A stretch of DNA of 64,000 nucleotides, taken from positions 864,001-928,000 of the forward strand of contig CM000208.1 of NCBI GenBank assembly GCA_000002445.1, in the 5' to 3' direction. Origin of the DNA: Trypanosoma brucei (taxonomy: Eukaryota). Positions 16,698 to 58,237 of this stretch are shown here, piece after piece; positions within the stretch are counted from its first letter, which is position 1; the number at the start of each line of letters is the position of its first letter. The notes beneath the pieces were generated by a model. It made no database searches, was not told the DNA's origin, and was given only the letters and a program-made list of their open reading frames with translations. A program made the position numbers and the translations under genes.

Positions 16698-19600
16698 AGG
16701 TGTACTGGAGTCACGGAGCAAGGCGTAAAGGATCGTATATAACTATTCTCACCCCTTCGTTTCCATTAAAATAAAATGGTAATAATGGAGAAAACTGGAA
16801 AATGTGATTTTGGGGGGGGGAATTGTAAAAGAAATGAGCTGATGACGGCCTCTTCATGTTTGGCGGTGCTATCGGGTCTATTTCGTTCCACTCCTTTGCC
16901 CCTTTTCCAGTAACGTTCTCTTTATTTCTTTACGCCTTTCTTTTTTTGTTTATCATTACCAATATGATTAAACTTCTGTAATACGAAGCTTTATTCTTCA
17001 TAAAATTTTTCCTTTTATGTGGTAACTAGAATGAATCTTGCCCTTACAAGGGCACAAATTCCAGCTTAGCAAATCGTTTTTACATTTTCTTTCCCTTCCC
17101 TTCTCTTTTTTTATTGTTTGGCTACATGTTCCCCCTACCGTACCTTTACTTCCACTTGTACTCCACCTCCGTACAGAAAAAAATCGAGGAGTATAATTAA
17201 CCGACAAATAATAATTATTTATTGGTGCACTCCTTCCTTTCTTATTTTTGTCCCCTTCTCACCTCAAACCGTATTTATTGTGTAACCACATTTAACGTCG
17301 CAGTTCAGCTATCTTAAACACATTCCATATTTTGTACTTTTGTTTGTATTGTGTTACATCGGTTCATTCAAATGGCGTGCGTGTGTGTTTATCTTTATGT
17401 GGTGGGCTAATGAGATGCAAATACACATTTTCCGTTTCCCTTTCTGCGCTTCTCCCTTGTTGATGTTTTTTTTGTTTGTTTTCTCCCTTTCATCTCCTTC
17501 TCTTCCCCCTCCTCAACACATTTTGTGTATGTATTTCCCAAACAACTGCCGTTTTTCTTTCGCTCATCTCGTTCCCTTGTTTTTTTTTTAGAAGTGGGTG
17601 TCCACAGAAGTGACGGGAAAGGCGGCGGAGGTAAAACACAGTTACCGTTGAAACCCAATAGAAGATGAAGCGGATGAATACAAAAAGAAAAAAAATATAA
17701 TAGTTGTGAGGTGATAGGGAAATTGGAGAAACACATTCAGAATTGTTGTGTGGGGAAGATATAGATGGCTCTTTCTTTCTTTCTTTCTTTTTGTCGTTTG
17801 ATTTTATGCAACACTTTGTTGGTGGTACAGTAATACATGTGCTTTTCTTTAATTTTTTGCGTAAATGTTGTGCATGTACGGTGAAGGTAAGGAAGCGCAT
17901 TCAGTGTCGCATTTGCAGAAAATTAATAGCCGTAGTGTGGAGAAGAAGGAAAGAAAAAAAGATGATGATTATGATGATGGGCGATACGCTTACGCATATA
18001 TTTATTTACTTATATATTTATATACAAGCACATGGGGGGGGGGAGAAGACGAAGGAAAGGAAAATGGTGGTGTGGATTAGGAAAGTGGCGCAGCATATTG
18101 AGTTAAGTGTAAATGTATTTGCCACTTAAATATGTGATACATAGCGGTGTGACTCTTCACAGCGAAATCGGTAGCAAAGAAAAGGTGAGGAATGAATTTT
18201 TTTTTTTAAAAAAGAAAAAAATTGTTAAGGTTGCCATGTTGTTTGTCATTTCCCTCCCTCGTAATATCTCTCATTAGCTTTCAACCTGAATTTGTTGTAT
18301 ATGCCATTTTGGACACCTTCTCCTCCATTACTTCCCGTAGCGATGGCTTTGTAGGGAAAAGTGGAAGGAATTCTCATTCGTTTATTTATTTATATTATGA
18401 CAATGTTTGAGATACGTGTGTCCTGCTTTTTTTTTTTTTTTAGACATGATACAAACAAATACATCATATATTTATTTATATAATTATATGTTTGGAGGAG
18501 AATGGGTTCGGTAAGTGAGCGAGAGATATGTGAGGGAACGGTGTTGGCACTTGATTTTTTTTTTTCAATTTATGTTATTGCTTTTTTTTTGGGGGGGGAG
18601 GAGGGGGGCTTTTCATTATTAACACCCGCTGCGTTGAGTTTGCTTCGATATCCCATTTCCTTATTTATGGATGCATAAATAATAAATAATATATATATAT
18701 CTTTTAGAACCAGTGAGAGCAGATGAGGATTGGGAACGAGCAAGTGAATAGAATAAAGTGCGGGACATCGAATTTGTTTATTAATGAAAGCAAAATGTTT
18801 GATCAGTCGCCACCTCTTCGTTTGTCCTTTGTGTCTTTTATATTTTATTTCATTGCTATCCCTGTTCTTATTAACGTTATTATTCTCCTATTCGTGGTTG
18901 TTGGTATTCGTCGTACGTATTTGCGAATGCGTAATCACAAATAATAAAATTAATAACAACATTAATGAGGACAAGTAGCGATGATGGTATACGGTCATTT
19001 TATTATTTGATGATTTATCCTTTTATCTTTTTATTTATTTATTTTTCTTCCTTTCTTCTTTCCTTGTTTTGGAGCACGTCCTGTTCATATCTTTATTTAT
19101 TTATTTTTCCACCACCTCCCCCTCCCCTTCGTTCTTCCCTTTGATTTATTTTGTTGCCATCAATCATTTGCTGGTGGTAAAGTTATATTTGAAAATATAT
19201 GATATGAACTTAAATTGTGAAGGACGTGACGTGGGCAGGAATTTATTAATGGAGGGAAAGGGTAAAAAAAAAAAGATAGCACATTTATTTATTTATATTT
19301 ATTTATACATATGCGCCACAAACCGATGGGGAGAAATGAAAATATCCTTGATTTTGTTTGTGGTTTTCGTCCATTTACATTCATTTTTTTTTCTAATTTA
19401 TGGTCTCATTAACTCTTTCGTTTCTGTGACTTGTTTTTTTTTTTCAGTTGTCGTGGAAGAACCTGCATTATTTTGGTGTATTCAATTAGATATGACAATC
19501 CTCCCCTTTTATGCAATTAATTTCTTTATTATTGTTATTGTTTTGGTCCCGTTTGAAAATGTGGCACGCACCTTACTTTCGCTTCAAATTATAGCGCGAC

Positions 19601-22600
19601 TAAATACTTTTTTCTTTTTCTTTTTTTTGCTTTCCTTTTTTTTAAAAAAAAATATTTATATATATTTATAATCCTCACTAACGGCTTTGAAACCATCTTT
19701 TTATTATCATTTGAGTCGTGTCGTGTCTTTTTTTTTTCTGTTAAAAAAGTATTATTATGATTTTAATTTTTTCTGCAGCGGCATTATTTTAATTCCCTTC
19801 ATTTTTTTATTACCTTTCCGACCTGCCTTACAGGAAGGTTTTTTTTTAAAAAAAAAGAAAAACTGAAGCGGAAAATAATATAAGTAACAATAATAATGGG
19901 TTGAAGGATAATATCAATTTAAAATTATTATTGACATTATGACAGAGGAAATGAGATAAATGATTTATTTTACGTATTTGTTTTATTATCTTACTTGTAT
20001 TTGAGTGAAATTGTCAACTCTTATGTTTATAGAAACATCGCCTGATGTGACAAAGACTATTTTGAAGAAAAATGAAAGAAAAAGCAAACAAAACGTGTTG
20101 ATTTATTACTATTGTTATTATTATTATTATTATGTTGCTGCCGTTTTCATTGTGGATTATTTTCTTTTATTCCCCCTTTTGTATGGTGGTTGTTATAGAG
20201 TGCGTAAGAAAATGCACCCCTCTCTTTTTTTTTTTTAATTTCCGCCTACAGGGTTAAACATTCCTTTGAAAGTTGCGAAAAGCACAAATAAAATGATGAT
20301 AATAATAATAATAATACACCACCTTAAACTCACATATATATATATATATTTTCTCCCACCTTCCCTCCTCCCCTCGTGAATGTGTGTTTCCACACAAGTT
20401 AGCCCTCCTTATTTATTTCTTTTTTTTTTAAAAAAAAGAAATCAAAACAATACTATTTTTTTTTGTGTGTTTTATTTGTTTTATTTATAGAAGGAGGTAT
20501 TAGTGAATATCGTTCTGCATATATGATGTACTGCGGTGCATCATTTGTAGGCATGTTGATTGCTACCTATTGTGTAGTACTTTTTATTTTGATCTGAATG
20601 TTCACATGTATGCAATTCAGAAATTAAAAAAAAATAATGTATATATATATATAAGAAATAAAGGAGAAAAAAAAAGAAAAGAGGGAGGACAAAATGGAAA
20701 AGGAAATTCCGTCGTGTCAAAGTTGCGTTGTATCTCCGCCTTTGCTGCCTTTTTTCTTTCATTTCTTTTTCTTATTTTCCTTCTTTTTTTAATTTTTTTT
20801 TTTTTAAACGGGTGGTGACTTCCATCCTTTCATTTCATCACTCTTTATATTACATTTCATCTCTTCAAGAACTCATTTATTGGTGATGGTTTTGTGTTTG
20901 TTTGTTTTTTTATGCCATAATTTTTTTTTCTAAAAAAATAATAATAATTATTATTAACTATTGTTGTCATTGGGCTGCGTGTAACGCGCGTTGGAGAGTT
21001 TGTTTGAGCGGTATTCTCGACATTAAAGAAAGAAAAGGGGAAGAAAAGGCTGTGCGGACGAATAAATGACAAAACACGGAAGTAAACGAGTACGAACAAA
21101 AAGAAAAAGAAATATGTATTTATATTCATTTATATGTACCATATTTCTTTTTTTTTTTTACGTTTATTTTGTTCAACCATGCGCGTGTATTGTGTAGATG
21201 ATATTAGAAATTCTGTAAGTTTGAGTGGAGGTGACAAAAAAGCTCTTTTTTTTTTCTTGAACTTTCTTTTGGACCATATTTATTTGTTGTGAACTTATTA
21301 CTTGTTACAAAATAATAAAAAACTACCAATGCAAAAATGTTGGGGTTTGAATTATGGGGACGCACGTGTGCTCAAAAAGACAGGAGAAAATGAGGGACAT
21401 GCGGAAAAATAAAGGAGATTTTATGGGTGTTATGGTTTAGAGTTTCATTTTCTTATTGTTTAATTTTTACTTTTCATTTTTTTTTACTTTTTGTTATTAT
21501 TTGCGGTTACTTTTTTTTTTGTGTGCGAATACGCTGTGAAGGTAACTTGCAAGTGAGCCGCGTTGCCCATATTAATATGTTGTATTTTATCTTCCTTTTT
21601 GCTCCCTTTGTATATAGTTAGAGTCATGCATACCCGTATGTTTGTGTGACACTTTTTTGTTTTTTCTTCTTTTTCGATATATTTGTTCATGGGCTTTTGG
21701 CATTTTTTTTTCTGTTTTTATTTTTGTTTTTGTATGTATGTGAGGCATGACAGGCTTCTTAACTTTGTTTCTTCGTCTTCCTCCTCTCTTATCTGTCTTT
21801 TTTGTTACGAAGGAAATTTTTTAAAAAAAATTCCTTCGTTCTCTTTCCCTTTCCCTTTCTCTGTTTCTTTTTCTGTTTTTCCACATTCTATTTTTTTTAT
21901 ATGGTTTTTCATCTTATTTATTTAAGCTGCATGTTTACTTTTGTATAGATGGCGCATATCCGACTAGTTGCAGTGGTGCGAGAAAGAGAGGAAATAAAAA
22001 AAAAAAGAGAAGAAGAGAGGAAGCAAAAATAAATACAAAAGGAGAAAAAAATAAAGTGAGGGGGTTTGGGTTGGGTGGATGAAGGAGTAATCACTACTTT
22101 TTGTTTGTTTTTTTTAGCAATAATTCCGAAACGCGACGAATCAGCTTTAAGTGCTTTACGTACTGATGTTACATCTCAAAAAAAAAAAAGGAAAAAGGTG
22201 AACAAGATACACATACGCAATTTTATTGTCTTTTTTGTTGTTGTTGTTAGAGAGGGAGAGGAGTATGACTATTTGTGGACCCAGAAATAGATTGGCAATC
22301 TTTTTTTTTTTCCTATTTTGGTTGAAAAAGTTTGGCATTCTCAATGCCAAAGAGAACTGAGAAGAAGGTAACACATCATGTCATATATATTTTTTAAAAA
22401 AAGACGCATTGCTTCACTTGCTGCGGTGTATGATTTTGTGTGTATTTGTGGATGGGGATAATAGTGTTGTCACTATACTTAGTTTTGTTAAATCTCGATG
22501 TTAATGTTGTGTCTGTTATGACTATTGCCACTATTAGAAATATTTTAAGGTGATTTTGACATTTTTGTATGGCTGCGGTTTGTTTGTTTGTGTGTGTGTG

Positions 22601-23303
22601 TGTATTTGTGTGGAAGCTTGAGGCATCAGGAGGTTGTGAATCACGTGAAGAATATGCTGTTGTTTTTTTTTTCCGTTAGATGGAATAGTGATGACATCAC
22701 TATATTTCTTTACATCCTTCTTATATATTTTTCTTTTATTATTCTTTACAATACAATACAGCAAACAAATAAATATACAAACACAAACTCAAATTCCTCT
22801 GTACCACAAGGAACTTTATCTGTGAAGGATCTTGCAGTAATGAAAAGGAGGCACATATTTGTGTTTGTTTGCGTTTGAGTGTTTAAGTGGATAACACTGT
22901 TTAGACACCGCTTCAAGTGGTCCTATAGGGAGAATTGGACCATTATTTACAGATTGAAACACCATTCGTTAGGATGTGTTGCCGTCTCTTTGTTTTTTTT
23001 TCTTATCACTTTTGTTTTTATTTTTAAGTTTTCCCCCGTATACACCTATTTCGGATCTTCACGTCCATAATGAAACTCTTTGTACATACCACTCTTTTTC
23101 TTTTTGTGATGTTCGTCACTACTCTCCTGAAAATAAATGTCTCTTATTTTTCTTTTCTTGTGTAATTTAGCGTTTGCCTCCATTATATAAGGAAATACTC
23201 TCCCAAAGTAGCAATAAGTAAAGCCAATAGGGAGGGGAACTGGAAGCCACAGTATATAATACGAAACGCTTTAATATTATCCTTCTCAATATACAAGTGT
23301 CAG

Positions 23304-23328: not shown

Positions 23329-25182
23329 ATGGTAATGGCTTGCGGTGCATGGTATGTGATGCGCTTTAATCTATTTATGCAATTATTAGCAGTATGCCTG
23401 ATTACATGCGGTACCACAACTGCCGATACGACCGCCTTTTGCCATGAACTGGAACCATTTTTGGTGCAGACACTTCCTCAGGCATCGGCTCATTTGTTAG
23501 AAACAGCAATCGCTAAGGAAGCCGCAGGAGATAATGTTAATGTAACGTGTGCACTAACGCCGGGGAAAAGTGTTGTTGTACTTTTAGGTTCATCCAATGT
23601 ACATCGCTTCAGCCCACTTCGTAACCCACCACCTGTTATCAAACTGGATACTGCTGATGGCGAGTTCACACATGAAGTCCGTGGCACATTCATGTTTAGA
23701 TATTTTCGCTCGTGGGTGAATGGCTTCCGGGCATATTCATGGACTGATCCTGCTTCCGTTGAGCGGTTCTTCTTCAAGCGACACATTTTCCTTCGGTTTC
23801 GAGTTAGTGATTCGACAGGCAACCCAAATGCGGATATTCACTTGAGTGCTAGTGAAGTGCTCACTATGGCAGGACTTCACAGCATTCGAGTCACCTCCTT
23901 CGCACCAGTTGCTGTGGAAATTCGGTTACGGGGAGGGAAAGAGCCCAAGGAGTGCTCAGACGCAACCTGCAGTAAATACGTTGACGCATTTGCAGAGCAT
24001 AGTGATAAAAGCGCGGGATTAACTCGACTCGAAGTACTTCCGCAGCGCTTCACGTGTTCTCCCGGTTATGGCGCCAATGGGTGGGGGTCGGGAGTTTCAG
24101 GAGGCCCCATGGATGGTGAGGTTTATGCTTTTGAAGAAATTGGTCCATACCGCGGTAGTAACTTGTGGATACCTCAATGGTTGTCTGCATGGCTGGGGCG
24201 GCGGCCTATGATGACTGTTTCTGAGAAGGTTGTGCTTGATGGTATGGGACGCCGTAAATTCCTTTTCCACGCTGAGATCCCCGCGGTTAAACCCGTGTGC
24301 CTTCGTCTCTCTGCCGTTAAGAATGACAATTTGATCGTGGAGTTGGAAGAGTCTACGGTGTTCGATACGTTTTGGCTCAAAATAATGCTACTGTTTGTGT
24401 TGCTGGTATTCATTAAGCCGTGGGTGGAGGAAATACCAGCACTCCAGATATTCATCGCCGGTCTTGGTAGCGTGACACTGCTTTTTGTAGTCACAATACT
24501 TTACGTGCTGAAAAGGTTGCAGGGAATGACTATTGGAAAGGTTGGTCTTGTTGCAATGGCAACACTGGGGGGCACCGCTCTTCTCGCTGAGACATTCTTG
24601 AGTGCTGTAGTTGCCCTTTACTATGCCTTTGTTCATTACGACAATGAGGCAGAGATGATTTTTTATGGGAGCGCCATGCTCCTCGTCTTTGGTCTTACTT
24701 GCGGTTTGCTTTCGAGGCATTACTGCGCCACTTATCTTACGGAGCTTACACGGTGGACATTGCGGCTACTGCAGCTCGCCGTCCTTGCATGTGCAATCAT
24801 GCAGAACCGCGAGGCAACGTTCGCAAGTTTCGTCGCCGCTCTTCTCTTTCACCCACCTCGCATTTTACGGCTCATTCAGTGGTTCTCCTCTTCCAGTTCA
24901 TTGGTGAATAACGAAAATGAACCTCAGGAAACATTTCCCAGTGAGGCGTTGCGCGAGGTTACGTATGTAACACCTCTCTGTATGGAGGGACGTACTGGAA
25001 GGGTTTCCACTATGGATTCGAGGGAAAGATTAGATTTGTATCGTATCAGTGGAAATGAGTACACACATCGTGCTCTTGAGGACCTCGCCTGCCGTGTGAA
25101 CAGCAATCCTGACCGTTACGCTTCAAAAGTGAATGATGCTGGAGGCGTTTTGAATTGGGCCAAAGGCTACCAGTACTCATAG
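23329..25182 (+). CDS. Hypothetical secreted or membrane glycoprotein: N-terminal signal peptide, a luminal domain of about 330 aa, then a C-terminal polytopic region of about 6-7 TM helices.
   Basis: First ATG at 23329; the track ORF starts at a GTG at 23320. MVMACGAWYVMRFNLFMQLLAVCLITCGTTTA is a typical signal peptide. Several N-x-T/S sequons occur in the first half. The second half is a series of hydrophobic helices (FWLKIMLLFVLLVFI, IFIAGLGSVTLLFVVTILYVL, LVAMATLGGTALLAETFLSAVVALYYAFV ...). Confidence 0.55.
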   Translation: MVMACGAWYVMRFNLFMQLLAVCLITCGTTTADTTAFCHELEPFLVQTLPQASAHLLETAIAKEAAGDNVNVTCALTPGKSVVVLLGSSNVHRFSPLRNPPPVIKLDTADGEFTHEVRGTFMFRYFRSWVNGFRAYSWTDPASVERFFFKRHIFLRFRVSDSTGNPNADIHLSASEVLTMAGLHSIRVTSFAPVAVEIRLRGGKEPKECSDATCSKYVDAFAEHSDKSAGLTRLEVLPQRFTCSPGYGANGWGSGVSGGPMDGEVYAFEEIGPYRGSNLWIPQWLSAWLGRRPMMTVSEKVVLDGMGRRKFLFHAEIPAVKPVCLRLSAVKNDNLIVELEESTVFDTFWLKIMLLFVLLVFIKPWVEEIPALQIFIAGLGSVTLLFVVTILYVLKRLQGMTIGKVGLVAMATLGGTALLAETFLSAVVALYYAFVHYDNEAEMIFYGSAMLLVFGLTCGLLSRHYCATYLTELTRWTLRLLQLAVLACAIMQNREATFASFVAALLFHPPRILRLIQWFSSSSSLVNNENEPQETFPSEALREVTYVTPLCMEGRTGRVSTMDSRERLDLYRISGNEYTHRALEDLACRVNSNPDRYASKVNDAGGVLNWAKGYQYS

Positions 25183-25916
25183 GAATGGAAGAGAGAAGTA
25201 AATGAACTTCATTTCTGTGGGCACAGGTGCGTGTACATGTGGGAGAAAGAGAAATAAGTGTTATCGTTTCTGTACATTCAGTTGTTTTGTTTTTCTTTTC
25301 AGTTCTTTGCATCACTGATGCCTGTGTATGTGTATGTGTGCGGAAAGCATCTGTAACGGCCATGGGTTTTGTGTGGGGGGTGGGGGGTGGGGGAAAGCGA
25401 AGCTGGTGGATATTTCTTTTTTTTTTTCCTTCCTTTTTTGCCCACTTTAGTTTTCCCTCTCGAAAATTGCTAGACGTGCTTTCTTCACATTTCCCCTTTC
25501 TCTTTGTTTTGTTTTTGTAGTACACGTGTTCTTTCCCTCTTTTACCTTGCCTTTCGCGCGCACACATTTGTGTACTTACCTGCTTTGAGTTTCTGTAGTA
25601 TTTCCAACGCGCTAGCAAGGAGGGGGAAAATGACGGACAAAAGCATTTTTTTTTTTTACTTTCTTTAAATGATATTCCTCATCATACAATGTTGAGATCA
25701 CTTGTAATGGTTGGGAAGCGAAAGGAAACCGGAGGATATGCATATGTGTCTGTGCATACCTTTCGGTTGAGGCAGTGCCAAGGGTAAAATAAAACGTTAC
25801 TTGAACGCTTGAGGTGGGGCTCCCTTTTCATTTGTTTCATTTTATATTCTGTTAAAAGGTGAATGAGATCATTAACGTAAACACATTTTCCCTAGCATGC
25901 TTTGTGATGTGATGTT

Positions 25917-25966
25917 GTGTGTGTGTGTGTGTGTGTGTTTGTTTGTTTGTTTGTTTGTTTGTGTGA
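25917..25966. repeat. Compound microsatellite, (GT)11 followed by (TTTG)6.
   Basis: Read directly: gtgtgtgtgtgtgtgtgtgtgtttgtttgtttgtttgtttgtttgtgtg. Confidence 0.9.
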
Positions 25967-26337: not shown

Positions 26338-28763
26338 ATGTTGTCACCGATTGTGGACATGAAATCCGTTGGCACGGACGATGGCTTTGATATTTACCTT
26401 CCAGGGAGTGACGCATTCTATTTTAAACGTCAGTTACACTATCAACCATACACTCCGTGTGCTTTTCCTGTGGAGTGGCTTGGGCATCAGGGTAAGATGC
26501 ACAAAACATCCGTTCATATGCGAATATCACCTTCAAACCTAGAGGAGGCTTGCGCTTCCGGTAGTTTGGGGTACGTTATCATGTTCTGGGCTCAAGGACA
26601 GAATATTAAGGGCTGCGAATCCGTAGTTGGTGGTGGCGATACACTTCTCATGACAGCGGCGTATAAGGGCCATATACATGTCGTGCGTTTTCTTGTTGAT
26701 GCGGGCGCTGATATCAACGCAACGAATAGCGCAGGGTTCAGTGCCCTGCATATGGCAGCATCAGCAATTAACTACCACATTGTGCGATTTCTCTCGACCA
26801 CGGTGCTGATCCAACAAAGAAGAACCACCAAGGGTATAGTGCGTATTGTGTTGCTGTGCAGAACGCAAGTCTTCCTCTTTTGCTCTTGTTGGCAGAACAT
26901 CGTCCCATTGATATCCATGAGAGAGATGAAATGGGCCACGCACTGCTCCATTGGGCAGCATACAACAATTCTGTTGCCATATGTCAGTACCTTGTTGAGG
27001 TGTGCAAGATGGATATAAACGTCGTCGGTAAAGATGGACGCACTGCTCTTGTGTGGGCGGCACGTGAAGGTTATGCTGACGTTGTTGAATATTTACTTTG
27101 CGCTGGAGCCGATGTAGACGTGGTCGACACGGACGGGTATACCGCACTGAATTACGCAAAGCATCGGAATCACCCGGAGGTACAATATGTACTGGAAAAT
27201 TATCCTTTAGCACAAAGGGGAGCCACCGGAATGGCAGCGGGCGACGGATTATTGGGTAATCAGTCGCTGGTTAACGGGGGTTACGTCACCGCACATAATA
27301 TGCGATGCCGCGGAACATTTTCGATGCTCTACCACGAACCGTTCTTCGCTGCCATGTCTGTTCTTGGCGCGGTGCATGTGCTTTTGGCGCACTACTCCTT
27401 GATGCTGTTACCTCCGCTTTTTAGTTATGCACCGTTTGGCATGTTTTTCTTCCGAAACACGTTATGGATGGCGGTATTTGGTTACCCCGTACAAGGCGGC
27501 AAACCGGAACTAACCATCCTCCAACAGTCAGGAATTGGTCGCTCATTTTCCGACACCATCCGCGGCACGTGGCGTTTCCGCGATCGTGATGCGGCGTCAC
27601 TCTTTGCCTTGACGACCTTTATGTTGTTGCAGCTGCGAGCGTGGGCGCTTATGGGGTTTGAACCCTTTTTGCCGTTTCTTTCCACAAGTAACTCGGTAGT
27701 AAAACTAAATGCAAGCCTGAATACCACAGATAAGGATTTACACGATGGGGGGAGTCGTGCGGTTAATTTTATGCAGCCTGTAATGTGTTTTCTCACTCTA
27801 TTCTTGCTGGTATCCGTGGTACTATGTAAGTTGCTTTCCATGCGGTCCGTGTACAAGCCCGAGTTTGGTTCGTTGGTCACTTCTCCTGTTTGGAATATCA
27901 TTAAGCACCGTGCATATAATTGGCTCCATCCAAGAATTATCTTCATGGAACGACATTTGGTACTCCCTCTTCGTGCCTTCTACTGTTATGAAAAGGACGT
28001 TGTTATGGAGCGATACGATGGCTACAGTGCGGTAATGGATTGCCCCGTTGCAGCGAGTAACCACGCTTGGTTCTTTATAGCAGTTTTTTGTTTTATGGTC
28101 CTGCAGTGGTTAATATTCATTTCTGGGTGGAGGCAGGCAAGGGTCATGCTCAAGTGTCCTCGTAGTGATTCGCTCGGGGAATATATTTCCTCATCTGCGT
28201 GGAACCTTCTCGTCCATGCCCTACCGTGTCGTGATCCCACGACCATAGATGTAACTGGAAAATCATATTTTTGGGTGTTTATGTTTCGGTACATTATTCC
28301 AACAACAACCAACCGTCTTGGTGTATGGTTGCTTCACTATAGTCTAATTGCAGCAATCATATCTACGTATTGTTTTTATCGCCAACTAGTGGCAGCGGCT
28401 ATTGGTGCGACACGCATGGAGTTGGCAAACCGAACAGCAACCAGTGGTAATGGCGGGCTTGTCTCCATATTTCCACCCTCCTTTGTTCCTTTCAAGGACA
28501 CGAATAGTGCTGCTGCCACGTGGACGCCTCCAGAGGGCCACTGTGAGGGAATGTTAACTATTGTGGACGATTTGGCTGCCGGAAACGTTGCGCACCGAAA
28601 GGTCGGGTCGCATTGCATTTACGCTGACAGCAGGTTTTCTATTCTTAACATAATCTACTTTCTGTTGGGCATTTCTGGTCGCCGCTGGAGGGGCGCGGTG
28701 GCAGTATCTTCTTTCAATTCTCCGATAAGCAGTGTATCCCTGTTGGAAGGTCCTCTTGCTTGA
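26338..28763 (+). CDS. Ankyrin-repeat-containing polytopic membrane protein, one gene of about 808 codons whose frame is broken by a 2-nt slip at CTCTC (26789..26795). Either a sequencing/assembly error or a pseudogenised allele.
   Basis: ORF 26338..27018 (frame 1) and ORF 26856..28763 (frame 3, GTG start in the track) overlap. Frame 3 is open back to 26772. Joining them at the CTCTC restores a canonical ankyrin repeat (...GFSALHMAASAINYHIVRFL|LDHGADPTKKNHQGYSAYCVAVQNASLPLLLLLAEH...). At least 5 ankyrin repeats are followed by roughly 8 TM helices. No DHHC motif is present. Confidence 0.6.
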
Positions 28764-29349: not shown

Positions 29350-31416
29350 ATGATCAAAGGGAGTGATCCGCTGCACCATGGCCTAAGTGAGGGGGCCGGC
29401 GGCAATAGTCGCGGCGATGAGAATGACACGGTAGTTAATAGTAATGTTGAAGTAATGTGCCTAGATATGTCGCGATCGTCGTTGCTGGCAAACAGCACGA
29501 AGCCGCCGTCATCTTCTTGCAGCGACACCCCAAGTAGTTGCAGTGACTCCAACATGAGTGGGATTGATTTTTATTGTCGACAGGTACCCATATTCTCTCA
29601 AGGAGTTGGTGTGGATTACTTTGTTAACGGTATGGGGGGATATGAAGGTCATTTGCACCAGCAACCGCAAGGAGGGGAACTGGGATTCGATCAAAGGAAT
29701 AAGCAAGGTGGAAAATCATCTTCATCACCATCAAACTTTCATCACAATGTGAATGAGGAGTGTTCAGCAACCGTAGCTACGCGTTTAGCAGGTGGGCTGA
29801 GCGATGATTGCTCGGGAAACAATACAAGACGTAGAAACTTCAACCATTCGATGTGCAATTCGCCAGAGTTGCGATCATGTGGCGACGAATACGCTGCAGA
29901 AGCTCGTCGGAATGTGCCTGGATCAAGTAGAGGTGTAATGGCGGCCGTATCGCAAACACAATCCCTTGGAAAAAGGAAAATTGCTGAAGGCAACGTTCAG
30001 GCTAACCTTCCACTTCTCCGTGTGAGTGATTGTGGCACGAAGACAGTTCATATAATCCCTCTCGGCAACACAAATGTCACAAGTCAGTTTAAGTGTTCGT
30101 GTTGTGATCATGTTTTTGAGTTATCGTTTGTTACGAATCATGCAGATAGTTCAGCAAAGGAAAAAGATCAGGAGAGAGGACGAAATACTGAGGTAGGCTT
30201 AACGTGCACATACGGTAATGGATTAGATTCTAATACTGGTGAGGCAACCGCGGTTGACAGAAGTGCTGAATTCTTGTTTCGTCAACAACCCGATCGCGAA
30301 TCAACTTCATTATCACTTCTTGGAATGAAGTTTGACAAGGGTTTCAGAGTGAGCGCTGGCTCCGTCCGTGGTAATTACGGTTCCCACCCAGTGCAAAACG
30401 AAACCAATGCATCTCAGGGAGCCGTTCGTCACTCGCTTGAAGATCGTCGACGACGGTATCAGAGTGGAAGATTTTCGCAGGGAACACCAAAGGAAATAAA
30501 AGCTAACGACTCACTTTTCCCTTCGTTACCGACATTTAGTCCAACCTCGTTTGTTCGTGCGTACGTCGGTGAGGGAAACCTGCCATGGGAAGCAACCTTG
30601 GACAACGTACCCGCCGTTACAGTTTCCTGTTGTGTCGCCGCCTTGAACCTTATCGCTGTGCAATTCCTGCGGCATCACGTTATTGATACGCGTGATCATT
30701 TTTGTCTTTTTGCCACGGGAACGTATATGATATTTGCTAGCTATTTTGTTGCCTACTACTTTCTTGGGCACTACACGGAGTCATTCCGACGCATATCCCG
30801 TGATAAACAGTTTTACATCATTGCTAACCTTATCAAGGCCGGTATTCTTGCCTCGCTTGTGCCGTTCGCAACACTGCATCTAAGTCGCATTATTTTGTTT
30901 GATGAGTGGGACACCAACACACTCCGCAATCTGGGCTGCATATACACCATACCGGATTTTGTATCTATGCTTATTGTAAAACGCATGAGTTGGTCGACGT
31001 GGACCCATCACTTATGTGTCCTGTTGTTTAACTTCTTTAGCACAATGAACGATTACACACAAGAAAACGTCTGTCGCTGCGTTGTCGTTTATGCAGCATT
31101 TTCCACGTTTGCGTACTGCGTGAATGTATTGCTTGCTTCGCGTTTTCTAGGTGTTAAACCAGGCGTTGCGCGGATACTTTCACATGTTTCAGTCGTGGCA
31201 TATTTGTTTTTCTGCGGATTGAATTGGGTTTGGCAAACATATTACATTCACCGGTTGCTGTACGGTGGCAATGGCCACTGGACCGTTTACGTGTATATCG
31301 CTCTTGTGGGACTGGTGATGTACGACGATGTAACGCTTTGCCAATGGCTGATTCACAACGCAAGGAACACAGCATTCGCGGCTGCACATCACAAAGAACA
31401 ACGACGAAGGCAATGA
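29350..31416 (+). CDS. Hypothetical protein of 688 aa with a Ser-rich soluble N-terminal region and a C-terminal multi-pass membrane domain of about 6-7 TM helices. A TLC-like fold is possible but unverified.
   Basis: ATG at 29350. The C-terminal 300 aa are hydrophobic helices with conserved aromatic and charged positions (HFCLFATGTYMIFASYFVAYYFLGHY, LIKAGILASLVPFATLHL, WTHHLCVLLFNFFSTMNDY ...). Confidence 0.55.
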   Translation: MIKGSDPLHHGLSEGAGGNSRGDENDTVVNSNVEVMCLDMSRSSLLANSTKPPSSSCSDTPSSCSDSNMSGIDFYCRQVPIFSQGVGVDYFVNGMGGYEGHLHQQPQGGELGFDQRNKQGGKSSSSPSNFHHNVNEECSATVATRLAGGLSDDCSGNNTRRRNFNHSMCNSPELRSCGDEYAAEARRNVPGSSRGVMAAVSQTQSLGKRKIAEGNVQANLPLLRVSDCGTKTVHIIPLGNTNVTSQFKCSCCDHVFELSFVTNHADSSAKEKDQERGRNTEVGLTCTYGNGLDSNTGEATAVDRSAEFLFRQQPDRESTSLSLLGMKFDKGFRVSAGSVRGNYGSHPVQNETNASQGAVRHSLEDRRRRYQSGRFSQGTPKEIKANDSLFPSLPTFSPTSFVRAYVGEGNLPWEATLDNVPAVTVSCCVAALNLIAVQFLRHHVIDTRDHFCLFATGTYMIFASYFVAYYFLGHYTESFRRISRDKQFYIIANLIKAGILASLVPFATLHLSRIILFDEWDTNTLRNLGCIYTIPDFVSMLIVKRMSWSTWTHHLCVLLFNFFSTMNDYTQENVCRCVVVYAAFSTFAYCVNVLLASRFLGVKPGVARILSHVSVVAYLFFCGLNWVWQTYYIHRLLYGGNGHWTVYVYIALVGLVMYDDVTLCQWLIHNARNTAFAAAHHKEQRRRQ

Positions 31417-32237: not shown

Positions 32238-34121
32238 ATGCGTATGATAGACAGTGAAGATGTGGCATTTTTTTTCGCCGTCATGACATGGAATCCCGAA
32301 CTTCTAGAGATCATGCTGGAGAAAGCACCAAACCCTCTGTATGTGGAGCGGGCAGCTGCAACTGAAGCGGCTCGCTTTGCAGCTGCATATCCCCTACCGG
32401 AGGAGACATCAAAACCGGTGGTTTCAAGATGCCGACCGTCTGCAAGGAGGCAAAGGAGGGCGCGTAAAACAAAGCGGGGCTGCGGAGTGCGATTGTCTAT
32501 TCCATGTGCGTTCTTTTGTGAATATGAAGCCCCCGATTTTGATGAAGAGGACGATTTTTACTGTGAAGATGATGAGCATGCAATGCAAGAAAAAAAAGGC
32601 GAGGGAGACCCTGATTCCTCAGTCGCGGAAGTTGAGCACGACCACGAACCGGACCCAAACTCATATTCCCCTGTTGAAGGCTGGGGGAGAAATGCTGGGA
32701 ACTGCATTGGAAGGGTTGTATCGGACTCAGTGGACAGTGGCGACAAACCCTTGGGGTACAGCATGCGTGACTTTCTGCAAATCTTCTTTCAAAGCTTTCT
32801 GATCGTTTCGTTGTCTCAAGTGCAATCTCAGCGCGTCCAAAATGAGTTTCCGCTATCGCTTTCACCTCTAGAGCGAAAGGCTTGTGAAATTGTTCATCGC
32901 TACAAAGATCCTTTCAAAGAAATTCTCCGAAAGTACGTCATAAGCGGAGATTGCGAAGTTGAGCGGCACGGGGCTCAGCCATTATTTGTGGATGGGTTTT
33001 GTATTAAAGCAGTCCAGCACGAGGAGGGTGAAAAATGGGCACCGCCACACGAGCAGCTCTTTATTGCTGGTAAGGATCCTGTCTACCAGCCGCTGTTGAT
33101 GGAAATGCTTGGTATTACACGAGTGGTTCAGTGCTATGCAGAAAAAGGGGCAAATTACCCTGCAACCCTGCATGCTTGTGCCACTGCAGTTGGTCAAGCA
33201 GCCTCCGGGAACCGCGACAGAACGGTTCACACGATGCAAAGTTGGCATCGTTTACTAACACAGCATCCCAAACTGAGTAAATCTAGTGATGGCGGCACTG
33301 ACATCGCAACTGCTAATGAAGATTTTGATCTGCCTTGTCCGTCTGAAGAAGAATGGGAGAAACTCCAAGGAGACATCTCCCGGTGCGTCACTCCACTGCA
33401 GTGGAAAACTTACACAGTGTTTGGTCCATACCTTGTTTTCTCGGCAACGTTACCATTCAGCAACGGTTGTGTGACAAAGCTTGTCGTCCCAGCAGAGGAT
33501 AAGGATACATACGACCTCTCCGTGCACTTCCAGGAAGGCGTTTTTAGGTACATCCACGGGACTCCACTCTTTCCCGTTGATGTCGGCCCAGCACTGGTGC
33601 CTAAAGAAAGAACAAGAATGGAAGATCAGAGGAGTCCCTTGTTGGCAAAGTCATGCCTGTTGCATTGTTCTGCCGGTATGCACCGTTCCAGTGCTTTAGT
33701 CATTGGCTATCTCCTATGGCTTGTGGCACTTTCTGGTGGGAAGTTGCCCATGGAGGGCAAACCAACTCTTGCGTTTGTGCCTGGACGTTATGCATCGTAT
33801 ACTCATCGTCAAGGAAGCGTATTTGCCGAATCTTACCTTACCGTCGTTCTCCGCAGCCAGCAGCGTGGATCATTTCCTACAGAGGAAGTAAGTGCCTCGC
33901 CGATGCATGCGGGCGCCGCTGTCGTATCGGTTGCACCGACGCAAGAGCCAGAGCGTGAGATACAGGAGGAGGATGTCCGTGCTAAAGCCCAGTTGAGCGA
34001 CGAGAAATCAATCTTACACTATTGTGCTGATCATGTACGACAGCAGCGTTCCATGGCAGTCCCTATTGCCACCGCTTTACAACAACTTCACCGTTATGCC
34101 CGCCATTTGCACTTAGCGTAG
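32238..34121 (+). CDS. Dual-specificity / protein-tyrosine-phosphatase-like protein, Cys-based CX5R active site.
   Basis: Catalytic P-loop LLHCSAGMHRSSALVIGYLLW at about 33655-33700 fits the HCxxGxxRS consensus of DUSP/PTP enzymes. There are long N- and C-terminal extensions and an acidic Cys-rich insert (CEYEAPDFDEEDDFYCEDDEH). First ATG is 32238; the track starts at a GTG at 32229. Confidence 0.7.
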   Translation: MRMIDSEDVAFFFAVMTWNPELLEIMLEKAPNPLYVERAAATEAARFAAAYPLPEETSKPVVSRCRPSARRQRRARKTKRGCGVRLSIPCAFFCEYEAPDFDEEDDFYCEDDEHAMQEKKGEGDPDSSVAEVEHDHEPDPNSYSPVEGWGRNAGNCIGRVVSDSVDSGDKPLGYSMRDFLQIFFQSFLIVSLSQVQSQRVQNEFPLSLSPLERKACEIVHRYKDPFKEILRKYVISGDCEVERHGAQPLFVDGFCIKAVQHEEGEKWAPPHEQLFIAGKDPVYQPLLMEMLGITRVVQCYAEKGANYPATLHACATAVGQAASGNRDRTVHTMQSWHRLLTQHPKLSKSSDGGTDIATANEDFDLPCPSEEEWEKLQGDISRCVTPLQWKTYTVFGPYLVFSATLPFSNGCVTKLVVPAEDKDTYDLSVHFQEGVFRYIHGTPLFPVDVGPALVPKERTRMEDQRSPLLAKSCLLHCSAGMHRSSALVIGYLLWLVALSGGKLPMEGKPTLAFVPGRYASYTHRQGSVFAESYLTVVLRSQQRGSFPTEEVSASPMHAGAAVVSVAPTQEPEREIQEEDVRAKAQLSDEKSILHYCADHVRQQRSMAVPIATALQQLHRYARHLHLA

Positions 34122-56273: not shown

Positions 56274-57067
56274 CGAATCAATGTTGTGTTTGATGGGGAG
56301 GAGGGTTGCCTGAACCGGGTGAGGTGGATGACGTCTCTGCACATTTTTTTTTCTTACTTCTTCCTGGCGGTTTGTTGTGCTAATTTGTGCGTGCGTGTCT
56401 CCTTCACTTAAGTGTGTTTTGACGATGAATACGTTACTTTTTCCTTAAATTTTTTGCATCGAAGCGGAAGTGAATAAAGGCGTCGGGGATTTGTTGCGCA
56501 CACACATTGGTTCTCGACTTCCTTCGCCCCTCGGTTACCTGAGCGGTGTAGGTGGAGGAAGGGTACAGCGAAATGGAAATCTCTCGTAGCAGCTGTGCTA
56601 AGAGATTTGTAATAGTTTTTTTTTGTGTGTGTCATGGTTTTTCATTAGTATCTATTTCACATACCTGCTTTCGCAGGTAAACTTTTTGAAATCTGTATCA
56701 TACTTGCATCTCTTTTTTTTTTTTTGTAATCAATCAGCCACAGTTGTGTTCACCTTTTTTAATAACTACTGTGACGACATATAAGTTATCGCACCACAAC
56801 TGCATGTGCTCAGCAATGGCAGGTTCTTTTTGAGGGTGGTAAAATTTTTGGCGGTTGATTATATTTTGTTTGTTGCGAATAACGTTGTTTTTGTGAGATG
56901 CGTCGCACTCTTTGTTTTTATCTGTAAAACGTATGCAACAGTTTTTTTTTTTAACCTTGATACTTCTCAAAAAAGGGGGGGAGGACGATTACGAAGTTTA
57001 CGTGCGGTCGATTAGGACGGACGAGATATTCGGAACGAGAGCAGGATTAAAAGGTGTAAAAATTGAG

Positions 57068-58237
57068 ATGTCACCGAAGAAAAACTCGGCATCGCGACCA
57101 TCAAATAACGGTGGAGGCGGAAAAACAGGGGGAGGAAACGGCAATGTCAGTCACAGAACTGACAACGAACAGAGCGGGAATAATTTATCGGAGCGCATTA
57201 TCGCCAATGAATCCCTCCTTGCAACAGAAAGTGAGAGGCATGCCACCTCTAAAAGTCTTTATGGGGATTGCACTGCACGAATATCAGGGAATCTATCCTG
57301 TATTCACGATCGTGTCCGACTGCGAGCATACGAGTCTGTACTGAGGAGTATCAAAGGCAAATCTGTATTGCACTTGGGGTGCGGAATGGGGTTGGTTTCC
57401 ATGATTGCAGCGCGAAGCCTCGCCTCCGCTGTTGTTGCAGTGGACCGTTCCGCAATTGTAGACGCCGCGCAAGTGGTGGCGAAGAAAAATGGGTTAAACA
57501 ATATTAGTTTCTTCCGGGGTGCTCTTGTGGACGTTGTTCAAAACTTTCCCGTGCGGCAGTTTGACGTCATCATCTGTGAATGGATGGGACCATTCTTGAT
57601 CAATGACCCACTGCTAGAAGAGGCTCTTTATGCCCGTAATAATTTACTCGCGAGCAACGGTGTTATGTGTCCTGACAGTTCATCCATTCACGTTGTCGGC
57701 GTCAGTGATTATTGTTTTCACATGGATACCGTGGAATTCTGGGGTAACGTATATGGTTTCAAGATGGAACCGATGAAAGCACTTGTGCAACGGGAGGTGG
57801 AGATGTGTCGTGTCCCCACCTCTAGTATCGTTACCACTACGTGTCTTGCCCACACAGTCAATATCGCATCGATTAACAATTTGGATGATAAATCGAGTTT
57901 GAACGATTTTGTGGTGCCCTTCAGCGTGCGAGCAACCAAAGACACGACGGTTAACTTTCTCACATTTTACATAGACGCCCGTTTCACCAACCCTCACGAT
58001 CCCGGTGCTAATTTTGTGTTGGGCGTCCGTCCAGGTGGCACCAATCCGTGGACGGAAACGAGTGTTGCTCTTCATGAACCCCTTCCACTGAAGGGTGGCG
58101 AAGTGTTGAGCGGTGAGTTGAAGGTGTGTTTGTTGAACCCAACTCGGGGAATTACAACCGTAGAGGTGACCGCACGCACGTCTGGTAATGTTGTAAACAT
58201 TGAGACAAAAGGCACGTACAACTACCAAAGGTATTGA
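57068..58237 (+). CDS. Protein arginine N-methyltransferase-like class I SAM-dependent methyltransferase with degenerate double-E and THW loops, possibly a catalytically inactive PRMT prozyme-type subunit.
   Basis: Motif I VLHLGCGMGLVSMIAA, post-I VVAVDRS, double-E-loop region FDVIICEWMGPFLINDPLLEE and a PRMT-type beta-barrel C-terminus. The canonical THW is replaced by TNPW. The start is placed at ATG 57068 (MSPKKNSASRP...) after the poly-T tract at 56941-56952. The alternative ATG 56933 and the track TTG at 56912 lie inside the pyrimidine tract. Confidence 0.7.
   Translation: MSPKKNSASRPSNNGGGGKTGGGNGNVSHRTDNEQSGNNLSERIIANESLLATESERHATSKSLYGDCTARISGNLSCIHDRVRLRAYESVLRSIKGKSVLHLGCGMGLVSMIAARSLASAVVAVDRSAIVDAAQVVAKKNGLNNISFFRGALVDVVQNFPVRQFDVIICEWMGPFLINDPLLEEALYARNNLLASNGVMCPDSSSIHVVGVSDYCFHMDTVEFWGNVYGFKMEPMKALVQREVEMCRVPTSSIVTTTCLAHTVNIASINNLDDKSSLNDFVVPFSVRATKDTTVNFLTFYIDARFTNPHDPGANFVLGVRPGGTNPWTETSVALHEPLPLKGGEVLSGELKVCLLNPTRGITTVEVTARTSGNVVNIETKGTYNYQRY

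Follow-up and report, generated by a model that had tools for sequence, protein, structure and literature searches.

Two adjacent annotated CDSs on Trypanosoma brucei TREU927 chromosome 10 read as one ankyrin-repeat gene interrupted by a single missing nucleotide

Organisation of the locus and its counterparts in related strains

The window, a stretch of 64,000 nucleotides from chromosome 10 of Trypanosoma brucei brucei TREU927, carries two overlapping ORFs on the + strand, one at 26338..27018 in frame 1 (226 aa) and one at 26856..28763 in frame 3 (635 aa), which share 163 nt. The product of the first is exactly the protein deposited as EAN77767.1/XP_822595.1. A second deposited protein, EAN77768.1/XP_822596.1 (510 aa; CDS at 27231..28763, + strand), is identical to the tail of the frame 3 ORF, and both fragments are deposited as CDSs for a 'hypothetical protein, conserved'. 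Frame 3 is open from 26772, the nearest upstream stop being at 26769-26771. These ORFs, the extent of the open frame and all of their coordinates had been described in a reading made earlier from the letters and their translations (the sequence-only reading), and were confirmed on the sequence.

When frame 1 is read to 26793 and joined with frame 3 from 26793, with one C read a second time, exactly 808 codons are obtained, and the junction consists of ...AINYHIVRFL followed directly by LDHGADPTKKN.... The joined protein is 99% identical, across 100% of its length, to an 808-aa protein common to T. b. gambiense DAL972 (CBH15348.1) and T. equiperdum IVM-t1 (RHW69731.1), and the 808-aa protein of T. 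equiperdum OVI is equally close. The earlier proposals of a single gene of about 808 codons, and of a junction at RFL/LDHGAD, are borne out by this comparison, as the junction is exactly the sequence of the intact relatives.

Codons 1-152 of the single gene (26338..26793, + strand, translated in frame 1) comprise the N-terminal region, the first two ankyrin repeats and the initial 19 residues of the third, and differ from the 808-aa protein of the intact relatives by a single amino acid (C93 versus H93). Codons 153-808 and the stop (26793..28763, + strand, frame 3) encode the rest of the ankyrin domain, the membrane domain and the C-terminal tail, and are 99% identical to the protein of the intact relatives. 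What remains of EAN77767.1/XP_822595.1 after the junction is an out-of-frame tail of 74 codons and a stop (26794..27018, + strand), and its translation, STTVLIQQRR...CARWI, is without counterpart in any orthologue. The 510-aa CDS starts at Met299, an internal methionine of the full-length protein.

More distant orthologues are also encoded by single ORFs, of 766-812 aa in T. vivax (812 aa), T. grayi, T. cruzi, T. rangeli, T. theileri and T. conorhini, and of 820-1009 aa in Leishmania and Phytomonas, all of them colinear with the joined reading. The junction residues Leu152, Leu153 and Asp154 are invariant in an alignment of 13 orthologues. A single intact ORF had been anticipated in other strains and species, and this was found in every orthologue examined, with no split orthologue among them. 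On these alignments the locus reads as one gene for a predicted protein of 808 residues, and has the form of a split gene, in that adjacent CDSs on the same strand are colinear with one ORF in close strains and are separated by a single frameshifting indel.

A comparable pair in the same assembly is Tb927.2.5860/Tb927.2.5870, which was reported as 'wrongly split' in TREU927 by Cosentino et al. 2021 (PMC8445201), and in which two adjacent same-strand CDSs likewise align end to end with one ORF of another strain. That pair lies on chromosome 2 and is backed by TrypTag localisation, whereas the present pair is on chromosome 10 and was identified from sequence alone.

An exact look-up of both ORF products and of the intact protein returned only the GenBank, RefSeq and UniRef entries for the fragments, and no intact protein of the window haplotype. 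The corresponding protein cluster has three members, which are the DAL972 and T. equiperdum proteins and the TREU927 fragments. A literature search, which included the accessions, did not find a published mention of this CDS pair; the gene is not mentioned in the T. b. gambiense genome paper or in a 2026 pangenome preprint, and the run accessions ERR7929161-3 were not cited in the literature.

Four orthologues, those of T. grayi, T. cruzi, T. theileri and T. conorhini, bear the name 'putative 6-phosphofructo-2-kinase/fructose-2,6-biphosphatase', yet their listed Pfam domains are confined to ankyrin and DHHC; this name was probably transferred via the ankyrin repeats. A gene model from a more distant relative (P0127 in EukProt, 2881 aa) includes the ankyrin/DHHC-like protein. 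By eye, its C-terminus resembles the 688-aa ORF at 29350-31416 of the window and the upstream 617-aa gene (23329-25182) may be the counterpart of its N-terminal part, a layout that suggests conserved gene order together with a fused gene model.

Ankyrin repeats and a degenerate DHHC-like membrane domain

Seven ankyrin repeats span residues 68-298 of the joined protein (26539..27230, + strand), as judged from matches to the Pfam Ank families, a 33-residue register and helix pairs in the AlphaFold model. Pfam ankyrin matches lie on both sides of the junction, at residues 100-153 (frame 1) and 172-264 (frame 3), which agrees with the earlier claim that both ORFs encode such repeats, and the whole-protein match has E = 1e-35, well outside what chance would give. 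Scores were 122 bits for Ank_2 (cut-off 27.3) and 101 bits for Ank (cut-off 21.1), with E-values of 1e-35 to 1e-20 across the Ank families, and by these profiles (Ank and Ank_2-5) the predicted product is an ankyrin-repeat protein. A profile search of the PDB with the whole protein returned ankyrin proteins only. In the AlphaFold model the ankyrin domain is formed of paired helices with pLDDT values of 70-89, and the mean for the whole model is 54.6.

Within the coding sequence of this domain, at 26868-26894, a polypyrimidine tract (tcttcctcttttgctcttgtt) precedes an AG, an arrangement with the form of a kinetoplastid trans-splice acceptor. The tract encodes the conserved residues SLPLLLLLAE, so its acceptor-like form may be without meaning.

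The sequence-only reading had placed a polytopic membrane domain after the repeats. This predicted arrangement is supported, and can be refined in that the membrane domain appears to be a degenerate DHHC-like one (residues 540-698; 27954..28430, + strand), on the evidence of a weak match to PF01529 and an alignment to ZDHHC9. The T. brucei residues score 20.5 bits against PF01529, below the gathering cut-off of 28.7, and each of the 13 orthologues matches the family at E ≤ 0.01, with 2.6e-8 as the best value, which makes homology to the DHHC domain likely but not membership of the enzyme family. A profile of the C-terminal half gave one marginal match in the PDB, to human ZDHHC9 (8hf3_A, E = 0.052), with PLRAFYCYEKDVVMERYDGYSAVMDCPVAASNHAWF aligned without gaps to the ZDHHC9 sequence.

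In this alignment the tetrapeptide DGYS (residues 561-564; 28017-28028) falls on DHHC and stands in its place. Asp561 and Ser564 are invariant in the 13 trypanosomatid orthologues, and a DHHC or DHYC tetrapeptide with its catalytic cysteine is absent from the T. brucei protein in both the translation and the alignment. The zinc-binding pattern C-x2-C-x9-HC-x2-C-x4-DHHC-x5-C is also lost, as only C550 coincides with it in the alignment to 8hf3_A and the remaining ligand positions hold Y, K, V, G, Y, S and P. Among 1.84 billion proteins, 29 representative relatives of the C-terminal half were found, and D-x-(Y/W/F)-(S/A/C) takes the place of DHHC in all 20 of those inspected.

Peaks of hydropathy occur at residues 340-358, 482-500 and 577-595, and the AlphaFold model places helices at approximately 343-357, 364-381, 420-438, 467-500, 576-605 and 657-688, mostly with pLDDT below 60. 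The predicted membrane domain would have roughly six helices, with a catalytically degenerate DHHC-like loop. Replacement of Cys by Ser at the DHHC position is the standard inactive mutant of these enzymes. From its residues at this site the protein is a probable DHHC-like pseudoenzyme and not a palmitoyltransferase; that it serves as an adaptor through its ankyrin repeats is speculative.

N-terminal ankyrin repeats followed by a polytopic membrane domain, as predicted here, are also found in yeast Akr1, human zDHHC13/17 (HIP14) and T. cruzi TcPAT1/TcHIP, and here too the DHHC-type loop would follow the fourth predicted helix. Compared with these proteins, DH(H/Y)C is replaced by D-G/S-Y/H-S in 13 of the 13 trypanosomatid orthologues and most of the zinc-binding Cys and His residues are gone. 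In T. cruzi the PAT that bears ankyrin repeats is TcPAT1 (PMC5967602), of which the T. brucei protein is a paralogue and not an orthologue. Taken from these comparisons, the orthologues appear to form a conserved family of ankyrin pseudo-acyltransferases that is apparently unstudied.

The missing nucleotide and the divergence of the gene

The two frames meet at tttCTCTCgac (26788-26798), where the codons in frame 1 are ...CAC ATT GTG CGA TTT CTC TCG ACC.... The window reads TTTCTCTCGAC at this site, and TTTCTCCTCGAC is present in 5 of 5 related T. brucei-group DNA sequences, two of them chromosome assemblies and the other three contigs built from sequencing runs. In the DNA alignment with these five relatives, the CTCTC at 26791..26795 (+ strand) corresponds to CTCCTC, which encodes Leu152-Leu153. 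The lesion is thus read from the alignment as the loss of a single C, CTCCTC to CTCTC, between 26792 and 26793. An interruption at CTCTC had been proposed before as a +2/-1 indel in a run of CT dinucleotides; the position holds, and the change of a CT unit does not, as one C is lost relative to the five relatives. On the same alignment the CTCTC run is a product of the deletion, the intact sequence being without a CT microsatellite.

An extra CT or TC, the +2 form of the indel, was considered as well. The relatives differ from the window by 1 nt in the DNA alignment, and removal of two bases shortens the repeat to 32 residues, in which a single Leu replaces the invariant Leu-Leu. With one base restored, all seven ankyrin repeats at residues 68-298 stay in exact 33-residue register.

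The alignment was extended to 14.4 kb of the T. equiperdum and T. b. gambiense chromosomes, in which there are 35-37 indel events. The missing C is the only one of these in coding sequence, within 8,231 coding bases of four genes. Substitutions in the same comparison amount to 0.7% of coding and 2.1-2.3% of non-coding positions and are evenly spread. The gene itself has 24-26 substitutions, at which the window represents a haplotype distinct from the relatives (haplotype-specific SNPs flank the site at 26685, 26819 and 26915, for example), and no switching that would indicate haplotype mosaicism was seen around the site, the differences from the relatives being evenly spread.

After repair of the frame, comparison with T. 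equiperdum and T. b. gambiense gives the gene a dN/dS of 0.12-0.14. The 1,968 bases that follow the shift have a value of 0.115, based on 13 synonymous and 5 non-synonymous changes, and apart from the single 1-nt deletion no further stop or indel is found in the 2.4 kb of the gene. The three neighbouring genes have dN/dS values of 0.22, 0.69 and 0.74, all above that of the split gene. The low dN/dS and the lack of a second stop or indel therefore argue that purifying selection has acted on the downstream frame over essentially the whole of the divergence. The several disablements, and the dN/dS approaching 1, of a unitary (decayed) pseudogene were not found in the split gene. By this pattern the lesion would be either very recent, or on one allele only, or not real.

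Origin of the split and its consequences

We consider it highly probable that there is one gene here, that its split lies in the collapsed reference record and that the full-length protein is still made from at least one gene copy. The deposited haploid record of TREU927 chromosome 10 lacks one C of the CTC-CTC for Leu152-Leu153, frame 1 therefore meets a stop after 74 wrong codons, and the locus was annotated as two CDSs, one of 226 aa and one of 510 aa, while in TREU927 itself the full-length protein would still be made from at least one copy of the gene.

The sequence-only reading had offered a base-calling or assembly error on the one hand and genuine or allele-specific inactivation on the other, which was judged to be the right pair of alternatives. 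A base-calling error in the consensus, judged from base rates, has slightly less than an even chance of being the cause. The site is neither a homopolymer nor GC-rich, and is therefore not a typical context for a Sanger error. That the consensus instead carries the one defective allele of a heterozygous pair is, again as a judgement from base rates, plausible though somewhat doubtful. Such alleles have precedents in Lister 427, in which CDS length differs between alleles in 123 genes, with 1-bp indels among the causes, and in which neither mRNA decay nor re-initiation was seen after the premature stop (PMC8445201). The allele-specific premature termination codons of that strain likewise arise from 1-bp indels in one allele that truncate conserved single-copy genes with intact orthologues in other strains. 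For Lister 427 both haplotypes were phased and allele-specific Ribo-seq was available, whereas the present locus is represented by one haploid record of another strain.

It is also conceivable, if unlikely, that both TREU927 homologues lack the C, in which case the gene would be a strain-specific natural null, or very young unitary pseudogene. The deletion does stand in the deposited sequence, both loss-of-heterozygosity tracts and genuine frameshift alleles of 1 bp have been described in T. brucei (PMC8445201), and the window is a distinct haplotype at all 24-26 substitutions, so a private mutation is plausible. Against this are the presence of one disabling change only, with the dN/dS of 0.115 downstream of it, and the retention of the gene as a single ORF from T. 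vivax to Leishmania, Phytomonas and more distant relatives. Such retention argues that loss is costly, and a null could therefore only be very recent. A homozygous null allele that was young enough would look identical in all of the tests that were run. Taking the heterozygous and homozygous cases together, we give even chances to the missing C being a genuine TREU927 allele, and by judgement from base rates very little room is left for anything other than a consensus error or a heterozygous or homozygous null.

The annotation as it stands, with a 226-aa ankyrin protein and a 510-aa membrane protein from two genuine genes, has next to no chance of being correct. Both are deposited as conserved hypothetical CDSs; the last 74 residues of the first are out of frame and without a homologue, the second begins at a Met inside a protein for which every relative has a single ORF, the ORFs overlap, and four conserved ankyrin repeats in frame 3 (26772-27230) lie outside both annotated CDSs. 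In addition, ribosome occupancy in T. brucei is reported to fall after a premature stop, with no re-initiation (PMC8445201).

Programmed -1 ribosomal frameshifting, or other recoding that joins the frames during expression, is exceedingly improbable: the shift needed is indeed -1 and the frames overlap by 247 nt, from 26772 to the frame 1 stop at 27018, but there is no X_XXY_YYZ slippery heptamer at 26785-26796 (zero-frame codons CGA TTT CTC TCG), the 100 nt downstream (26796-26895) fold no better than shuffled sequence (z = +1.13), and all relatives are single-frame with the extra C, so that a two-frame arrangement is not conserved. Recoding by RNA editing is likewise opposed by the nuclear location of the split gene on chromosome 10, U-insertion editing being, to our knowledge, confined to kinetoplast transcripts.

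With one gene split in the reference record as the preferred reading, the consequences are mainly for annotation curation, in which the correction is minor but definite. Most functional genomics in T. brucei takes its annotation from TREU927, RNAi screens, tagging, proteomics and ORFeome design included, and two false gene models that hide one conserved protein would mislead tagging, the design of knock-downs and orthology tables. The records to be fixed are XP_822595.1, with its 74-residue nonsense tail, and XP_822596.1, from which the ankyrin domain is missing; they could be merged, or marked as a frameshift allele. The locus adds a further case to those already known, in which collapsed trypanosome assemblies contain split genes or allele-specific frameshifts, and involves no new mechanism.

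Should the missing C prove to be a true allele, the reference strain would carry a natural null of a conserved ankyrin protein, a catalytically dead DHHC-like pseudo-acyltransferase. Conservation of this protein extends from T. vivax to Leishmania, and to more distant relatives that are represented only by environmental assemblies, and no study of it was found. TREU927 would then be a ready dosage or knock-out background for the function of the pseudoenzyme, for example in recruiting substrates for an active acyltransferase.

Several features of the surrounding sequence were also recorded. Upstream, the 6.6 kb at 16700-23300 is without an ORF of at least 220 aa, has a G+C content of 0.30-0.39 with abundant T/C and A/G low-complexity repeats, and differs from T. 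b. gambiense and T. equiperdum far more than the genes do. An intergenic (TG)15 microsatellite lies upstream of the split gene at 25903-25965; of the 500-nt bins compared across the locus, the one that holds it is the most divergent (36-38 differences). The downstream genes at 29350-31416 (688 aa) and 32238-34121 have no Pfam match; theirs are the dN/dS values of 0.69 and 0.74, calculated against T. equiperdum from only 10 and 14 changes, where that of the split gene is 0.12. No database record was found for the 688-aa neighbour under its ORF coordinates. Further downstream, 56912-58237 is a protein arginine methyltransferase gene, with PRMT_C and methyltransferase domains.
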